Origin: Sulfurospirillaceae bacterium
GTDB taxonomy: Bacteria > Campylobacterota > Campylobacteria > Campylobacterales > Sulfurospirillaceae
DNA length: 64,000 nt
Assembly (NCBI GenBank): GCA_033723415.1
Contig: JAWVXD010000005.1
Location: 64,001 to 128,000, forward strand
Direction: 5' to 3'
Below are positions 12,118 through 21,857 of the stretch, piece after piece (position 1 is the first letter of the stretch; each line of letters starts with the position of its first letter). The position numbers and the translations under genes are program-made. Below the pieces are notes generated by a model that saw nothing but the letters and a program-made list of their open reading frames with translations, searched no databases and was not told the DNA's origin.

Positions 12118-12354
12118 CTAATCAGGCGGTCCATATCCTTTTTCTTTTGCCTTTCTTTCTTTTATATTCTTTTTTCTTTCTTCCAACATAACAGCATCCT
12201 GCAAAGATTCCTCATCATCATATAAAGCTCCATCCAGAAATTTATTTTGATCATCAAATTGACCTGTTCTTAAACCCCAAATAAGTGCCCAAAGTCCAAA
12301 AGCTCCAAGCGTTATAGATGCCCCAAGCATCATGGCTATAACCCAACTGTTCAT
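12118..12354 (-). CDS. ccoS: cbb3-type oxidase assembly protein CcoS
   Basis: TM helix followed by WGLRTGQFDD; downstream of ccoI. Confidence 0.93.
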   Translation of the reverse strand: MNSWVIAMMLGASITLGAFGLWALIWGLRTGQFDDQNKFLDGALYDDEESLQDAVMLEERKKNIKERKAKEKGYGPPD

Positions 12355-12468
12355 ATTAACTGTCTCCTTTAACTTGGGACAGGTTCCAAGTTAAATTCCT
12401 CTCACTAAAGCTTCGCCCTTGGCGAGAATTTTTCATTAACTGTCTCCTCCAACATTTAGTATGATCAT
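12355..12468 (-). repeat. Dispersed ~80-bp double-hairpin repeat, copy A, with translationally coupled mini-ORFs at 12436-12468 (MIILNVGGDS) and 12356-12436 (MKNSRQGRSFSERNLTWNLSQVKGDS)
   Basis: Direct repeat ATTAACTGTCTCCT at 12355 and 12435; perfect 10-bp inverted repeat 12368-12377/12386-12395; 61/81 nt identical to 18769-18849. Confidence 0.9.
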
Positions 12469-14885
12469 TATTTTCTTTTTGGTGTCTTAATCATATTGAT
12501 TCTCATAGAATTTCCTACAACTATCAATGAACTAAGTGACATTGATAAAGCTGCAAACAGCGGAATCACATATCCTGCCATAGCAAGTGGTATCGTTATA
12601 GCATTATACAAAAATGATAACAATAAATTTTCTTTAACGATACGAAATGTCCTCTTTGAGATCAAGAATGAGTAATACAGTGACTCAAATGAATTATTTA
12701 TAAGTACGACATCACTTACATTTAGAGCTATATCAGCCCCACTACCCATAGTTATAGCTATCTCACTTTTTGAAAGTGCCAAAGCATCATTGATCCCATC
12801 TCCTACCATGACTACTTTTTTACCGTTCTTTCTAGCCTCTTCTATTATATTAGCTTTCTCTTGAGGCAGTAAAGAAGCATAAAATTTTTCTATTCCTACT
12901 CTATTGCATATTTTTTTTGCCACTTCCTTATTGTCTCCTGTCAGCATAATCACTTCTACACCTAAGTGTTTGATATTTTCTATGCTCCAAGCAGCATCTT
13001 CTCTTGGTATATCTTCTAATGCAAAAACTGCCACTACTTCATTATTGATTGCAAAGTAGTATTGACTAAAATCTTCAAAACTGCTATTACATTTTATACC
13101 ATTTTCAGATAATAAACTCATGCTGCCACCATAAAGTGTAGCTCCTTCATAAGTGGCTTTTATGCCTTTTGCTTCGATATTTTTGATGTTTTGCAAGTCT
13201 TTTATTTTAAATTTTTCTTCCTCAAAATATTCTGCTATCGCTTTACTTATAGGATGAGTAGAATTTTTACTTAGAGAATATAAAAGCGATCTGTCAAAAT
13301 CTTTTAAATATACTTTATCCACAATTTTGGGTTTCCCGGAAGTTATAGTACCGGTCTTATCCAACATCAATACGTCACATTTCGCCATAGTTTCTAGAAA
13401 TGAAGCTTCTTTAAATAGGATACCTGATTTAGCAGCCATCCCAAGACCAACAAGCGTAGAAACTGGAGTTGCCAATCCAAGAGCGCAAGGACATGCTATG
13501 ACTATAACAGAAATTGCAACTATTAAAGAGCGCTCAAAAGGTTCTCCGCCAAAATACCAAAATAGTAAAGTTCCAATAGAGAGTAATAAAATAATAGTAG
13601 AGAAGTAACCAGATACGATATTTGCTAGCTTTTCAATTTGTGGTTTCTTATTCATAGAATCTTCTAATAACGAAGTTATTTTACTCAATACCGAAGAATT
13701 GACATCACATATCGCACGATATCTAAAAACAGTATCTAGCGCGATATATCCACTTAGTATCTTATCTCCTGTCTTCAAAAAAACAGGTGTAGATTCTCCT
13801 GTCAAGCTTGAAGTATCAAATGAAGATTCACCGTCAATAATAACGCCGTCAATAACAATTTTTTCACCGGCCTTTACTTCTAATATATCTCCTGTTTTAA
13901 CTTCTTCTACACCTAACAATATCTTTTCATCGTTTTTTATGACCAATACTTCCGTAGGGACTGAGCTGTTAAAACTGTCCAACCTGTCTACAGCCTTTTT
14001 CTTTGATAAAACTTCTAAATATTTTCCTGCAAATACAAAAGTTATGATCATAGTCACAGAATCAAAATAAACTTCTCCTTTTTGAGAAAACATCGCATAT
14101 AAAGAGTATATATAAGCTGAAGTTGCACCTGTTGCAACTAGAATATCCATATTTACATATTTGTTCTTTATCCCGTAATATGCACCTTTAAAATACACCG
14201 AACCCGTGTAAAAAAGAGTTGGTGTTGCTAGTACGAATTCTGCAAAATTCAAGATGTTTTTTATTTCGAGTTTCATGCCTGTAAAATAACCTGCATATTG
14301 AGCTATTGCGATCCACATGATATTCATAGTAGTGAAAACGCCGACCAATAATCTAGCGTAATAATCACGTCTAGTACTATTTGCCTGAATCTCCTGCATG
14401 CTAGGATCATAAGGGTATGCATTGTAGCCGATGTTCCTGATAGTAAGTATGATTTCTGAGAGTTTTATAGTGTCCGGATCCCAAACGATTTTTGCTTTAT
14501 TGTTTGTTTGATTAATGCTTGCTTCTACTATACCATCTTTTTGATGCAATACTTTTTCGTTAAGCCAGACACAAGCGGAGCAGTGAATTCCTTCTATAAT
14601 GAGATAAATCTCATAAAATCCGTCTTTATTTTTTATATATTTTTTGTTAAAACCTTCTAGATCAAATTTTTCAACTTCACCAAGATCTTCTTTTGGTGGT
14701 TCAAGTTCAGTATTTCCGACTCTTTTATAAAAATCATCCAAACCTTCACTTTTCAGAAGATGGAAAACTCCTTGACAGCCTTTGCAGCAAAAATATTTTG
14801 TTGAATCTTCAAAACTGCTGTCTTTAATCAATACCTTTTCGTCAAATTCAAGATGACAATGGTCACAGCGTCTTTTTTGCATCAA
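12468..14885 (-). CDS. ccoI: Heavy-metal P1B-type ATPase CcoI/FixI (copper supply for cbb3 oxidase)
   Basis: N-terminal CxHC...FCCxGC domain, HCSAC, TGES, CPC, DKTGT, GDGIND; adjacent to ccoS. Confidence 0.9.
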   Translation of the reverse strand: MMQKRRCDHCHLEFDEKVLIKDSSFEDSTKYFCCKGCQGVFHLLKSEGLDDFYKRVGNTELEPPKEDLGEVEKFDLEGFNKKYIKNKDGFYEIYLIIEGIHCSACVWLNEKVLHQKDGIVEASINQTNNKAKIVWDPDTIKLSEIILTIRNIGYNAYPYDPSMQEIQANSTRRDYYARLLVGVFTTMNIMWIAIAQYAGYFTGMKLEIKNILNFAEFVLATPTLFYTGSVYFKGAYYGIKNKYVNMDILVATGATSAYIYSLYAMFSQKGEVYFDSVTMIITFVFAGKYLEVLSKKKAVDRLDSFNSSVPTEVLVIKNDEKILLGVEEVKTGDILEVKAGEKIVIDGVIIDGESSFDTSSLTGESTPVFLKTGDKILSGYIALDTVFRYRAICDVNSSVLSKITSLLEDSMNKKPQIEKLANIVSGYFSTIILLLSIGTLLFWYFGGEPFERSLIVAISVIVIACPCALGLATPVSTLVGLGMAAKSGILFKEASFLETMAKCDVLMLDKTGTITSGKPKIVDKVYLKDFDRSLLYSLSKNSTHPISKAIAEYFEEEKFKIKDLQNIKNIEAKGIKATYEGATLYGGSMSLLSENGIKCNSSFEDFSQYYFAINNEVVAVFALEDIPREDAAWSIENIKHLGVEVIMLTGDNKEVAKKICNRVGIEKFYASLLPQEKANIIEEARKNGKKVVMVGDGINDALALSKSEIAITMGSGADIALNVSDVVLINNSFESLYYSFLISKRTFRIVKENLLLSFLYNAITIPLAMAGYVIPLFAALSMSLSSLIVVGNSMRINMIKTPKRK

Positions 14886-18202: not shown

Positions 18203-18769
18203 TCATACTTTTACTCTTAAATCCATAGCTTTTGACAAAGATAAGATATCTACATTTTCAAGATGAACGCCCGTAGGAACACCTTGTGCAATTTTCGTAA
18301 AAGATAAAGACATATCTTTAAGATTATCTTCTATATGCATAATCACAACATCATTCGAAAGTGATGGTGTCAATGCAAATATAATTTCTTTAACTCCATC
18401 TTTAGCTATAGTTTTTAGATGATCTATACTATCCGGTTCTACATTTTCTAATACAAAATATTTTCCGTCATATAAGTTATACTCTTCTAATACCAATATA
18501 TCTTTTGCATTTTCTACTATGCAAATCTTTGTATTGTCACGTTTTTCATCCAGACATATCTCACATATCTCGTTTTCACTTAATGCCCCGCAATTTTGAC
18601 ATTTTTTGATTGATTTGACAGCAATTTCTATTGAATTTGCAAGCTTCATAGCCAAGAAAGTATCATTTAATACTAAGTGATACGCATATCTCATAGCCGA
18701 CTTTTTGCCAACAGTCGGTATAGATTGAAATGCTTCTACTAGATTATTGAATTTTTCTAATTGTTTCAT
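18203..18769 (-). CDS. recR: Recombination mediator RecR
   Basis: PTVGKKSA HhH, C4 zinc finger, ICIVE and AQGVPTG motifs. Confidence 0.95.
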   Translation of the reverse strand: MKQLEKFNNLVEAFQSIPTVGKKSAMRYAYHLVLNDTFLAMKLANSIEIAVKSIKKCQNCGALSENEICEICLDEKRDNTKICIVENAKDILVLEEYNLYDGKYFVLENVEPDSIDHLKTIAKDGVKEIIFALTPSLSNDVVIMHIEDNLKDMSLSFTKIAQGVPTGVHLENVDILSLSKAMDLRVKV

Positions 18770-18983
18770 TAACTGTCTCCTTTAGTTTGGAACTCGTCCC
18801 GAACTAAATTCCTCGCACTAAAGCTAGCGCTTTGCGCAGAGTGTTTCATTGTCTGTCTCCTTTAACTTGGAACTCGTCCAAAGCTAAATTTCTCGTACTA
18901 AAGCACAAAACAGAAGTTTCTGTATCGCTATTTTCTATAATTTGAAAAAGCGCAGGAGTTGAATTTTTGTCTATTTTTTTCAT
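18769..18983 (-). repeat. Tandem copies B2 (18769-18849; MKHSAQSASFSARNLVRDEFQTKGDS) and B1 (18846-18983; 45 codons, 3' part homologous) of the double-hairpin repeat
   Basis: 80-bp period (CTGTCTCCTTTA at 18773 and 18853); homologous to 12356-12436; mini-ORFs overlap their neighbours via ATGA/TAATG. Confidence 0.9.
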
Positions 18984-20212
18984 GTAAGTATCTTAAATTG
19001 GTGTATTTTTATTTCTTCAGAGTAACTGTACTCTAGAGAAAAATCATGTAATTCTACTATATTTTTAACAATATAAAGACCCAAACCTAAGCCTTTGTCC
19101 ATATTACCGGAAACAAATGGCTTGAAGTATTCTTCTATGGCTAGAGAAAGTTTTTCTCCTCTATTTTCAAAAATTATGGCATTTTTTTCGCTTCTTACCT
19201 TTACTTGGTGATCAGGACTGTGCTTTATAGCATTATCCATCAAATTTTTCATAGCCAAAGCAAGTAGTTCAAAATCTGCCCACAGTATCATTTCATCCTG
19301 AACATCTACTATAACATGTTCATCTCTTTTTTCATTTTCCAACATCAACAGATCAATTCCATGTTCTAGAATATAAACAAGATTATATCTTTGAAAATTT
19401 GGAGTGTAGCTTTTGGACACAAGCTGTTCAATTTTGGCAAATTCGCTTATAAGAATGTCTAGTCTCTCAAATATCTTGATCAATCTGTTTTTAGATTTTT
19501 CATCTTCCAGCATTTCGGAAACGATTCTGCCTTTACCTATGGGTGTCTTTAACTCATGCATAATAGTTCTCAAAAAAAGTTGCCTTGAAGCCATCAGGGC
19601 AGATATTTTCTTCACAGCTCGATCAAATTCATTTGCAACCTCAGCTATCTCGTCATCTTGATCACTTTTACAATCAACACTCATATTTCCACTTGCAAAC
19701 TCCCGTATTTTCAAACTTAGTTCTTTAAGCGGTGAGATACTTCGCAAGATTGAAGCATACATCAATATAAAGATAATCAAGGCAATCGCAAAACCAATCC
19801 AAAGCTGCTTATCACTACTTTTTATATTACTAGTGCTTTCTAGCAATATATTAGTCATGATATTTTCGATAAAAAGATAGTATTTGTCGTTGTATTCTAT
19901 AGATGTAAATCTATTTAGATTTATGGATTTTCTGTAAATTATAGTTCCTTGATCTAAAACTGCTTGCTTTAGATTGGGATTATCAACCTTTTTGAGATCA
20001 AAAGTATGAAAATACTCTTCTATATTTCGTGGAGTATAGTTATTGCGATAGAGAGTAAAAAGATAATTTATAGATTGAAATTGTCTTTGTTTCATACGTT
20101 CAGTGTTGATTTCTTCTTGATATTTCAGCAAAAGGATAAAAAACATACCAAGGAGAACAAGAGAAAAAACAAAAATGATGGTAATTTTGGTGCTTAGTGA
20201 TTGTTCTTTCAT
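18980..20212 (-). CDS. racS: Sensor histidine kinase (RacS/ArsS family, HAMP domain)
   Basis: Two TM segments, HAMP, MHELKTP H-box, NLMDNA and GLGLGL motifs; dnaJ-RR-HK-recR order matches C. jejuni racRS. Confidence 0.8.
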   Translation of the reverse strand: MKEQSLSTKITIIFVFSLVLLGMFFILLLKYQEEINTERMKQRQFQSINYLFTLYRNNYTPRNIEEYFHTFDLKKVDNPNLKQAVLDQGTIIYRKSINLNRFTSIEYNDKYYLFIENIMTNILLESTSNIKSSDKQLWIGFAIALIIFILMYASILRSISPLKELSLKIREFASGNMSVDCKSDQDDEIAEVANEFDRAVKKISALMASRQLFLRTIMHELKTPIGKGRIVSEMLEDEKSKNRLIKIFERLDILISEFAKIEQLVSKSYTPNFQRYNLVYILEHGIDLLMLENEKRDEHVIVDVQDEMILWADFELLALAMKNLMDNAIKHSPDHQVKVRSEKNAIIFENRGEKLSLAIEEYFKPFVSGNMDKGLGLGLYIVKNIVELHDFSLEYSYSEEIKIHQFKILT

Positions 20213-20889
20213 CCTACTAACTTATAACCAATCCCTCGCACAGAGTGTATATATATAGGCTTTTTCGAGCTATCTCCGATCTTGCTTCGGAGTCTTCCCA
20301 TGATAACATCTAAGCTTTTACTTCCTTTATCTTTAAGTGAGCTGCAATTGTAAACCAGCTGCTCTCTTGATATAGAAAAACCGTTTTGTTTTATCATGTA
20401 TGATAATATTTCATATTCTGCAGGTGTTAAATTCAATGCTTCTTCTTTGAGGAATATCTGATGCCTTTTCTCATCAACTCTAAAATCACTATCTACATTT
20501 GATCCTACAGTTTCTGTTGTATTTGTTGATTTTTTATATCGTCTGATTAAACTTTGAATTCTCGCATACATCTCTTTTGGATCATAGGGTTTTGGCAGAT
20601 AATCATCAGCCCCTATCTGTAGTCCTATAACTTTGTCACTTATGTCGCTTCTTGCAGAAGAGATGATGATAGGGATATCATATTTTTCTACAACTTCCTT
20701 GCATACTTCCAATCCATCAATACCAGGCAATGTCAAATCCAATATTAAAAGATCATATTTTTTGATTCCGGCACTCAAACCAAGATAAGGATCTTCATAA
20801 TTTGTTATTTTAATATTGTATTTCGCTAAATATTCACTCAAAATCTCCGCAAATTCCGTGTCGTCTTCAATCATAAGAACATTTATCAT
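20209..20889 (-). CDS. racR: OmpR-family response regulator (RacR-like)
   Basis: IEDD, LDLTLP, GADDYLPKP and VRGIGY motifs; SD AGGTG before ATG 20889. Confidence 0.82.
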   Translation of the reverse strand: MINVLMIEDDTEFAEILSEYLAKYNIKITNYEDPYLGLSAGIKKYDLLILDLTLPGIDGLEVCKEVVEKYDIPIIISSARSDISDKVIGLQIGADDYLPKPYDPKEMYARIQSLIRRYKKSTNTTETVGSNVDSDFRVDEKRHQIFLKEEALNLTPAEYEILSYMIKQNGFSISREQLVYNCSSLKDKGSKSLDVIMGRLRSKIGDSSKKPIYIHSVRGIGYKLVG

Positions 20890-20920
20890 GTGGTCACCTA
20901 TCGTATAATTTTTCACAACA

Positions 20921-21308: not shown

Positions 21309-21857
21309 TTATTTTGTTAGATTACTCTTTAATTCAGATATCTGCTCTTTTGTTAGGATTTTAAAAGCCTTTTCCATATAATCTGCTTTGATCTTTAACA
21401 TATGTTTATGCATATTGTCGGCATACTTTTCAAAAGCTTGTTTATCAAAACCTTTATCGCTTATAAATGCCGCCATCTTGCCTTGGCGATTGTATCCCAT
21501 CATTTTTTTCATATTTAGTCTCATCTCATCTCGGAGAATTGAAAGTTTGTATCTTTGTTCATTATTTAAATTCAATCCTGCGAACATACGCATACCTCTG
21601 GCATTGTGCATTCCCATCATCGGACTATTACCACGCATCATGCCTCTCATCTGCATATTTGGACAATTCATCATACCCTGACCTTGCATCATCATGCCTC
21701 TTGATTGCATACCTTGTCCCTGCATCATGCCTCTCATTGGCATATTTGGACAATTCATCATGCCAGGCCCGTAAGCAGGGGTATTCATAGTGCCTGCATA
21801 TAAGCTAGCGGACATAGCGCCGGCTATAGCCATTGTGATCATAAACTTCATCTTCAT
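21309..21857 (-). CDS. Periplasmic Spy/CpxP (LTxxQ) family protein with Met-rich repeats
   Basis: Signal peptide; LNLNNEQ and LTKEQ motifs. Confidence 0.8.
   Translation of the reverse strand: MKMKFMITMAIAGAMSASLYAGTMNTPAYGPGMMNCPNMPMRGMMQGQGMQSRGMMMQGQGMMNCPNMQMRGMMRGNSPMMGMHNARGMRMFAGLNLNNEQRYKLSILRDEMRLNMKKMMGYNRQGKMAAFISDKGFDKQAFEKYADNMHKHMLKIKADYMEKAFKILTKEQISELKSNLTK

Follow-up and report, generated by a model that had tools for sequence, protein, structure and literature searches.

Tandem units of a dispersed intercistronic repeat between racS and recR in a Sulfurospirillaceae bacterium and their possible action as a ribosome-binding cassette

Within the 64,000-nt stretch of DNA from a Sulfurospirillaceae bacterium analyzed here (contig JAWVXD010000005.1, positions 64,001 to 128,000; hereafter the window), a gene for a racS-like sensor histidine kinase and the recR gene downstream of it are separated by a gap of approximately 210 nt. 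An initial annotation had proposed that this gap is tiled by two mini open reading frames (mini-ORFs) that overlap each other and both flanking genes, and that these frames belong to an element also present at an unrelated operon. This raises the question of what the element is, how it came to lie between racS and recR, and whether the mini-ORFs contribute to the translation of recR. Comparison within and between genomes identified the element as a widespread, undescribed and dispersed intercistronic cassette of about 80 nt that resembles MIRUs, the interspersed repetitive units of mycobacteria. On balance, the sequences favor the explanation that the junction harbors two tandem copies of this repeat, together with a possible remnant, which would act like a mobile ribosome-binding cassette.

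The racS-recR junction and its repeat units

The kinase gene (18980-20212, minus strand; 410 aa) was taken from the ORF list and matched the NCBIfam ArsS-family model with 424 bits (cut-off 250). The gene served by the cassette, recR (18203-18769, minus strand), reached 179 bits with the NCBIfam recR equivalog (cut-off 162.55) and matched the Pfam families RecR_HhH and RecR_ZnF. The TGA stop codon of racS is embedded in ACATGA (18980-18983, minus strand), and the ATG of this ATGA, at 18983, opens the 45-codon mini-ORF 1 (18846-18983, minus strand). The TGA of mini-ORF 1 overlaps, again as ATGA, the ATG at 18849 of the 26-codon mini-ORF 2 (18769-18849, minus strand), whose TAA overlaps the recR ATG at 18769 as TAATG. 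The two mini-ORFs were thus found to tile the whole gap via ATGA, ATGA and TAATG, with coordinates, sequences and overlaps as first proposed. A script stepping back from recR returned stop-to-start offsets of -2, +1 and +1 and then a kinase frame of 413 codons. The peptide predicted from mini-ORF 1 did not match any Pfam or NCBIfam family.

A repeat search identified three copies of 63 nt with 76-100% identity in the window, two of them between racS and recR (units A and B) and one at 12350-12440 (minus strand). The latter, which was also recovered by the covariance model described below, lies between a ccoI-like heavy-metal P-type ATPase gene (12468-14885, minus strand; NCBIfam) and ccoS (12118-12354, minus strand; Pfam FixS/CcoS) and carries a 26-codon mini-ORF (12356-12436, minus strand). 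The racS-recR units accordingly are the element of the ccoI-ccoS operon in tandem, in agreement with the initial annotation. Chance as the source of this likeness was excluded; a 13-mer of the unit has 3 matches in the window against 0.48 expected and none of 100 shuffles reached 3.

The recR-proximal unit B (18763-18853, minus strand) is canonical and scored 91.8 bits with the covariance model (E 4.8e-16). On the minus strand, it consists of hairpin 1 (GCGC-AAA-GCGC, 18837-18827), the linker AGCUUUAGUGCGAGGAAUUU (18825-18806), hairpin 2 (18808-18781) and the Shine-Dalgarno (SD) sequence AAAGGAGA (18783-18776), which ends 6 nt 5' of the recR ATG. The racS-proximal unit A (18843-18927, minus strand) is of a variant type; it scored 52.7 bits (E 2.5e-7) and was also matched by nhmmer over model positions 30-90. 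Its parts, on the same strand, are hairpin 1 ACAGAAACUUCUGU (18923-18910), the linker UGCUUUAGUACGAGAAAUUU (18905-18886), hairpin 2 (18888-18861) and the SD AAAGGAGA (18863-18856).

The 45-codon copy had earlier been interpreted as a longer variant that matches over its 3' part only and has an expanded hairpin 1. The restriction of the match to the 3' part was borne out, but a simple expansion of the hairpin was not: unit A has a different, longer hairpin 1 and, in addition, 56 extra bases. These bases form the 5' end of mini-ORF 1 (18928-18983, minus strand), beyond the model match, which begins at 18927. They may represent the decayed 5' piece of a third unit, as their AACUCCUGCGC resembles the ACUCUGCGC of the next unit. 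Elsewhere, a variant subfamily was observed in which a longer first hairpin (CAGAAG...CUUCG) is joined straight to UGCUU and in which some copies have an extra linker base (AGUCGCGAGG). Its members are L200 (second ccoS paralogue of one congener), L196, L004, L030:1567-1646, L151:601-718 and a copy on contig C8 of this genome (2450-2529). By sequence, the racS-proximal unit A belongs with these long-first-hairpin variants.

Structure, spread and conservation of the repeat

Read 5' to 3' on the mRNA strand, the unit begins with a variable A-rich lead (often AUGAAA) and YUCU, followed by hairpin 1, the linker, hairpin 2 and the SD. Hairpin 1 has a stem of 4-5 bp of free sequence and the loop C-AAA-G, whereas the 20-nt linker, (A/U)AGCUUUAGUGAGAGGAAUUU, is nearly invariant. 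Hairpin 2 comprises 10-13 bp, often with a four-base loop, and leads into the SD AAAGGAGA and an A/T-rich spacer of 6-8 nt with a stop codon in it, after which the next ATG follows.

The pairing was evaluated in two alignments. In A2, a MAFFT alignment of 22 copies from one genome, 88.1% of the cells pair compared to 68.0% after shuffling, and 73 cells with double changes, a value that none of 500 shuffles reached, were counted compared to 25.3; when the partner was slid by 1-3 columns, pairing dropped to 35-58%. In A4, which comprises 80 copies drawn from about 40 genomes, 94.4% of the cells pair compared to 66.8%, with 350 double-change cells compared to 106 and compensatory change at 14 of 16 pairs; unlike A2, however, A4 was made by fitting to the structure of the model and tends to favor it. 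The covariation argues strongly that both hairpins are real and that the RNA structure is under selection, which we regard as very probable. As about 70 G-U or U-G cells among the 80 copies would be mismatches if the complementary strand folded, the folding strand is the mRNA strand. Two further pairings were considered by inspection of the alignments and rejected, a helix UUCU/AGAG closing hairpin 1 and a pseudoknot joining AAAG of the hairpin-1 loop to CUUU of the linker. The variants in both are uncompensated, and neither helix is claimed because G40 changes to A without a change of C15 and U34 changes to C without a change of A21. As to complementarity of the linker with 16S rRNA, the assembly contains no 16S gene.

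The RNA of the racS-recR locus has a predicted fold of -54.2 kcal/mol with a z-score of -2.85. In the minimum-energy fold, CUCCU in mini-ORF 1 (18949-18953, minus strand) pairs with GGAGA of the recR SD (18776-18780, minus strand), approximately 170 nt apart; this long-range pairing may be due to chance because the ensemble frequency of that structure is 0.0007.

To determine the spread of the element, an nhmmer profile was built from five copies and returned 32 matches at E<=0.01 in the 2.43-Mb assembly, while a covariance model built from 22 copies returned 48 matches at E<=1, 42 of them below 0.01. The two loci are a sample of about 42 copies in the genome, and the element is not a device peculiar to one locus. 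A 19-nt core, allowing at most one mismatch, occurs in 24 of 24 other genomes searched from the family as defined by GTDB, with 1-41 copies each; the reversed core, used as control, was found in none of the 41 genomes searched. With the covariance model, the element was recovered from 49 of 61 family genomes. Per genome, at least 17-69 copies were counted in the genus of the window, 5-57 and 12-37 in two other genera and 0-3 in a fourth, low-copy genus (matches in 16 of 28 genomes), all taken from the best 71 candidates at most, so that the high counts are lower bounds. Sampling of the order gave matches in 37 of 151 genomes, which belong to 9 of 26 families, and copies from four other families have an identical linker. 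Among the compared genomes, a metagenome-assembled genome (MAG) of Sulfurospirillum sp. had 49 matches, and none were found in Arcobacter sp. 15-2, Helicobacter zhangjianzhongii and two Arcobacteraceae MAGs. Rfam gave no match in the 64-kb window at gathering thresholds and, at E<=10, only four weak and unrelated ones of 15-20 bits on 18700-19050. Searches of a collection of open-access literature for Arcobacter, Sulfurospirillum and Epsilonproteobacteria, and under general terms, yielded no account of the element.

Within this genome, a co-directional upstream ORF ends within 140 nt of 27 of 32 copies. Twenty-six of the 32 run directly into an ORF starting with ATG, and four of the other six are the upstream members of tandem pairs. 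Such pairs, with a period of 80 nt, are present at racS-recR and at three more loci (contigs C2, C3 and C4). The genes downstream of the copies are argB, lutB, argG, a phosphoenolpyruvate (PEP)-mutase family gene, clpX, an SPFH gene, nuoC, dnaE, infA, secY, tusA, a low-molecular-weight phosphatase gene, ureC, parB, a DUF2603 gene, argF, phnJ, rbfA, ccoS and recR. In relatives they include atpC, rplM, secY, gcvH, moeA, xseB, dapD, rplK, fliQ, thyX, aroC, trxB, accC, oppC and a hydrogenase gene.

One copy stands out by its conservation. In the low-copy genus, the top match is always the unit between hemB and argF, and a unit at this position is common to three genera (L178, L179, L180, L181, L171 and L021, also L027 from the third genus, and this genome, where the linker of the unit at 215058-215190 of contig C5 is interrupted by about 40 inserted nt). 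Among five genomes of the low-copy genus, 7% of the 75 sites of this unit differ, compared to 55% of the four-fold degenerate sites of argF, which served as the neutral yardstick, and 12-23% of all argF sites; argF of L181 was excluded, as its frame breaks after 10 codons. Homogenization between copies is an unlikely cause of this conservation because there are only 1-3 copies per genome. The comparison indicates that the hemB-argF unit is under strong purifying selection along its length, and it may be the founder copy. The break in the L181 argF is located at a T run that is one base longer than that of its relatives and reflects either a frameshift or a mistake in the assembly.

In the low-copy genus, the element also occurs in the P12 loop of RNase P RNA, to which it adds approximately 70 nt (406-407 compared to 336-337 nt). 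It is present in four of six aligned rnpB genes (L019:1348-1753 and L175-L177) and absent from the other two (L173 and L174); two further genomes (L020 and L182) carry it as well. The rnpB of the genome studied here (L172:1501-1825) lacks it. The RNase P RNA copies have a GAAA loop in hairpin 1 and a linker that has diverged in part. From the presence of the element in this RNA it follows that it can land at sites where translation plays no part.

Insertion history and the mini-ORFs

The nearest RecR loci are from uncultured Campylobacterales MAGs (74-82% identity). Among congeners, 11 of 13 racS-recR junctions are devoid of the element and the other two are filled, one with a single unit and one with two, so that the copy-number comparison suggested in the initial annotation did reveal variation. 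In several of the empty junctions, the kinase frame ends in ACATGA over the recR ATG; it is with these bases that the 45-codon frame of the window now begins. In the congener with two units, a single 54-codon frame extends from ATGA to ATGA. As 11 of 13 congeners lack the element and have an ATGA junction where checked, the element was inserted behind the ancestral start codon of recR, and this comparison makes insertion of the repeat family at an ATGA junction almost certain. With respect to RecR identity, the states were empty at 82%, filled at 77%, empty at 78% and filled at 76%, an interleaving that pointed to repeated gain or loss. A corresponding pattern was obtained for ccoI-ccoS in the genus, where 10 of 13 junctions are empty, in most cases with the ATPase frame ending on ATGA, and three are filled with one, one and two units. 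In the window, a 10-codon ORF (MIILNVGGDS; 12437-12470, minus strand) joins the ATPase stop codon to the 26-codon mini-ORF, with a TAATG on either side. The end of this short ORF, GGAGACAGUUAAUG, has the sequence found at the 3' end of a unit, which makes the ORF look like what is left of an older copy upstream.

To compare the mini-ORFs, the canonical start codon was defined as the ATG 24 nt before the linker and scored in 89 distinct copies, of which 28 have it. Premature in-frame stops occur in 2 of the 28 ATG-bearing and 17 of the 61 ATG-less copies (Fisher p 0.03), and the frame ends within -4 to +1 of the next ATG in 18 of 28 compared to 20 of 61 (Fisher p 0.006), although both p-values overstate the difference since the copies share descent and are not independent. 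The stop codon of a long upstream ORF lies within -5 to +1 in 14 of 28 ATG-bearing but only 4 of 61 ATG-less copies, and in 12 of the 28 it forms an ATGA exactly on the ATG of the unit. At the filled racS-recR and ccoI-ccoS junctions examined, the unbroken stop-start chain noted at the outset recurs in six of six cases from five genomes, namely at the racS-recR junction of the window, that of the congener with the 54-codon frame, ccoS in the window and three ccoS junctions in other genomes. One of the six contains a variant unit with a 1-nt linker insertion, where the upstream frame is shifted accordingly and still extends from ATGA to ATGA.

Based on this, our reading is that the frames would matter as ribosome conduits at formerly ATGA-coupled junctions and not as genes. 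At racS-recR, ribosomes ending racS would restart at the old ATG within ATGA and translate the 45-codon frame, restart at the second ATGA to translate the 26-codon frame, and finally stop on TAATG, where the SD AAAGGAGA of unit B, ending 6 nt upstream, would hold the 30S subunit for recR. Passage of the ribosomes would melt the hairpins, including hairpin 2, which abuts the SD. Such a relay would keep the translational coupling between racS and recR that the insertion would otherwise break, and the SD of the element would also permit initiation on recR independently of racS. The hairpins and the linker, in turn, are very probably kept by selection at the RNA level, the candidate roles being those of a module for processing or stability and of a binding site recognized by a conserved factor. 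That the mini-ORFs at racS-recR are translated and relay the coupling in this way appears somewhat more plausible than the opposite.

A number of points weigh against this reading. A search for sequencing runs returned no RNA run and one DNA run, which contains the stretch and may be its source. The canonical ATG is missing from 61 of the 89 copies, so that the mini-ORF, contrary to what had first been assumed, is not the defining trait of the element, and the hemB-argF unit, apparently the oldest copy seen, lacks a mini-ORF start as well. It follows from these two observations that the mini-ORF cannot be what the element does in general. Common to the copies are instead the RNA structure, the 20-nt linker and the SD. 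Strict coupling at both ends is found in only 9 of the 28 ATG-bearing copies, and the contrasts between copies with and without the ATG may stem partly from subfamily descent and not from selection. In addition, a coupled 3' end is cheap to obtain because the A/T-rich spacer offers a stop codon near the ATG in two of three frames. Concerning mobility, a mobilizing enzyme was not found, nor were terminal inverted repeats or a clear duplication of the target site. On inspection of the alignment for the terminal inverted repeats typical of miniature inverted-repeat transposable elements, the unit ends UAAAAUGAAA... and ...AAAGGAGAAAUUAAA were not complementary. In a crude comparison, ungapped and anchored on the ATG, the 5' flanks agreed with the 3' end of their own unit at a mean of 12.5 of 24 positions and with those of others at 11.9 (Wilcoxon p 0.99). 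Some loci have flanking direct repeats of 19-21 nt; several of the 5' repeats look like remnants of upstream units.

Alternative explanations and related systems

The conserved structure could also mean that the unit is an untranslated structured RNA module, that the mini-ORFs are incidental and that recR is translated only via the SD of the element. In one version, an endonuclease would cut the linker, leaving hairpin 1 to cap the upstream 3' end and hairpin 2 with the SD to cap the downstream 5' end; the succession of 3' cap hairpin, single-stranded linker, 5' cap hairpin and SD would fit such an intercistronic processing or stability module. In another version, the linker (GAGAGGAA) and the SD (AAGGAG) would bind a global regulator such as CsrA, and a binder of this type would be in keeping with the two sites that contain GGA at a spacing of about 35 nt; however, the linker GGA is not invariant and is present in about 15 of the 22 A2 copies. 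The large share of copies lacking the canonical ATG (61 of 89), the low divergence of the ATG-less hemB-argF copy (7% compared to 55% at neutral sites), the identical linker in other families of the order, the strong covariation in both hairpins and the copy in RNase P RNA (P12 loop), a context in which translation plays no role, all agree with an RNA module. It leaves unexplained, however, why ATG-bearing copies are concentrated at ATGA junctions (12 of 28 at +1) and why unbroken chains are found at all six filled recR and ccoS junctions, including the frame-shifted variant. We regard this account as rather unlikely; it is compatible with the ribosome-binding cassette and does not exclude it.

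With two hairpins per unit, the element might further be a selfish repeat acting at the DNA level, either REP-like or a two-hairpin derivative of the IS200/IS605 type, with hairpins that a Y1 transposase would recognize as single-stranded DNA and with an SD and a mini-ORF that merely let insertions survive. The difference in copy number between genera (0-3 compared to at least 17-69), the polymorphic presence at given junctions and Y1_Tnp matches in 55 of 61 family genomes are in line with this. But Y1_Tnp is also present in 26 of 28 genomes of the low-copy genus and absent from some copy-rich ones, so that among the 61 genomes copy number does not follow the presence of the transposase, and the single Y1_Tnp match of this genome (contig C1, 746-1036) does not flank a unit but is more than 100 kb away from the nearest one. 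Moreover, compensatory stem differences between copies are at odds with recognition by one enzyme, the G-U pairs favor folding of the sense strand, and purifying selection acts over the whole length of the single-copy hemB-argF unit, all of which makes a selfish repeat improbable. Reverse transcriptases (RVT_1), found in 20 of 61 genomes, do not track abundance either, with 0 of 3 in the genus with 12-37 copies and 10 of 28 in the low-copy genus. The Y1_Tnp matches themselves sit in open frames of mostly 220-290 aa, usually 1-5 per family genome; these could be a domesticated gene resembling REP-associated tyrosine transposases (RAYTs), and no link to the element was seen. The conserved structure beside an SD, and copies 5' of argB, argG, argF and ureC in this genome as well as 5' of argF in three genera, would be expected of a ligand-sensing riboswitch or leader of the downstream gene. 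A riboswitch for arginine or urea metabolism was considered on the basis of these four genes and rejected as the other targets are too diverse. The functions of the downstream genes range over replication, secretion, the ribosome, respiration, partition and many others, and this lack of a common theme rules out a metabolite-specific riboswitch; copies are also gained and lost between congeners, a copy lies inside RNase P RNA, Rfam has no match and no covarying alternative pairing was apparent on inspection of the alignment. Ligand sensing in any form is thus very improbable. Hardly credible, finally, is a family of functional small peptides. The predicted peptides do share the motif SFSERNL, but this is a mere translation of the conserved linker, beyond which no conservation was found. 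In their C-terminal halves the peptides have either KGDS or KETVK, according to the reading frame set by a loop one nt longer or shorter, compensatory substitutions in the stems alter residues, most copies lack a start codon and no protein family was matched.

A broader view, which we put forward as a tentative possibility, takes the unit as an order-wide structured RNA of Campylobacterales that would serve as a portable translation-start module, its linker being read by a conserved cellular partner, for which the ribosome, an RNase and an RNA-binding protein come into question. The hemB-argF leader, functional as a single copy at first, would then have multiplied to start codons throughout the genome, in effect as a mobile ribosome-binding cassette that rewires the translation of operons, and entered the P12 loop of RNase P RNA, and the relay via mini-ORFs would be secondary, at ATGA junctions.

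Among known systems, the closest analogue is, by description, the mycobacterial MIRU. The passages on MIRUs in a recent review (PMC12548453, 2025) describe them as apparently mobile, inserting at start codons and possessing an internal ORF that is coupled to the gene with a 4-nt overlap, an insertion mode that likely minimizes the impact on expression (Supply et al., 1997, as cited there). The title of the latter work, as given in the review, places the first MIRUs in the operon of a two-component system. Compared with these descriptions, the element shares short units that occur singly or in tandem between the genes of operons and are oriented with them, insertion at start codons, the logic of the overlaps in part of the copies and, at racS-recR, a position directly behind the kinase gene of a two-component system. 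In our material, co-directional intercistronic position and tandem units were found, as was insertion at start codons with a copy number varying between relatives. The overlap of the mini-ORF was found at racS-recR and at six of six filled recR and ccoS junctions, but in the whole set a start is present in only 28 of 89 copies, ATGA in 12 of 28 and coupling at both ends in 9 of 28. The likeness is one of description; phylum and base composition differ, and homology to the MIRU is unlikely for an A+T-rich unit from a different phylum. In contrast to the MIRU as portrayed in those passages, the element has a strong SD of its own, two covarying hairpins and a 20-nt linker conserved across families, and two thirds of its copies lack a mini-ORF start; it further differs by an orthologous copy under selection at hemB-argF and by copies inside RNase P RNA.

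The arrangement also resembles termination-reinitiation and the synthetic bicistronic design, in which the 3' end of a leader ORF holds the next SD and stops on the next start codon, and in which a ribosome reaching the end of the leader opens the structure nearby and passes to the next gene. According to the same review (PMC12548453), a short ORF that delivers the ribosome is used in biotechnology for that reason, and overlapping pairs of the ATGA and TGATG types are treated in PMC6728339. Unlike the synthetic design, the element is natural, repeated dozens of times, apparently spreading and equipped with stable hairpins.

Similarity to other dispersed repeats is more limited. REP/BIME, ERIC, Correia, BOX and RUP are small non-coding multi-copy elements that are often co-transcribed with operons, form hairpins and vary in copy number between lineages; as a rule, they are palindromic or bounded by inverted repeats and lie 3' of genes or in promoters. 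To our knowledge, none of them provides a ribosome-binding site set at a constant spacing from the start codon that follows. The element agrees with them in its small size, high copy number, hairpins and lineage-variable abundance, but it has no evident terminal inverted repeat and supplies a ribosome-binding site near the next start. Bacterial repeats are the subject of PMC3049150 and PMC10969869.

If the explanation of a ribosome-binding cassette holds true, the element would add an independent second example, from another phylum, of an operon repeat that colonizes start codons and sustains the expression of the host genes by a mini-ORF relay, and one that, unlike the mycobacterial case, brings along its own SD and a conserved RNA fold. 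It would thus be a natural counterpart to the synthetic bicistronic design, and the three successive overlaps at racS-recR would offer a tractable test of how far termination-reinitiation chains. As an unannotated RNA motif, the element has dozens of copies per genome and extends over several families of Campylobacterales, with one copy more conserved than the adjoining enzyme gene. Annotation pipelines would miss the units or call spurious small proteins. MIRU loci serve as typing markers, and the differences in copy number at fixed junctions could be used likewise.

With regard to the surroundings of the junction, an OmpR-type response regulator gene, identified from the ORF list and by protein-family matches, is located 5' of racS (20209-20916). 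Near the two-component genes, a gene at 21309-21857 (minus strand) encodes a 182-aa protein that is rich in Met, Gly and Gln and has a signal-like N-terminus. The protein contains repeated MMNCPNM(P/Q)MRGMM segments, and the DNA repeat family D4 lies inside its gene (21635-21764). By its sequence, this Met-rich protein looks like a periplasmic metal-binding protein.

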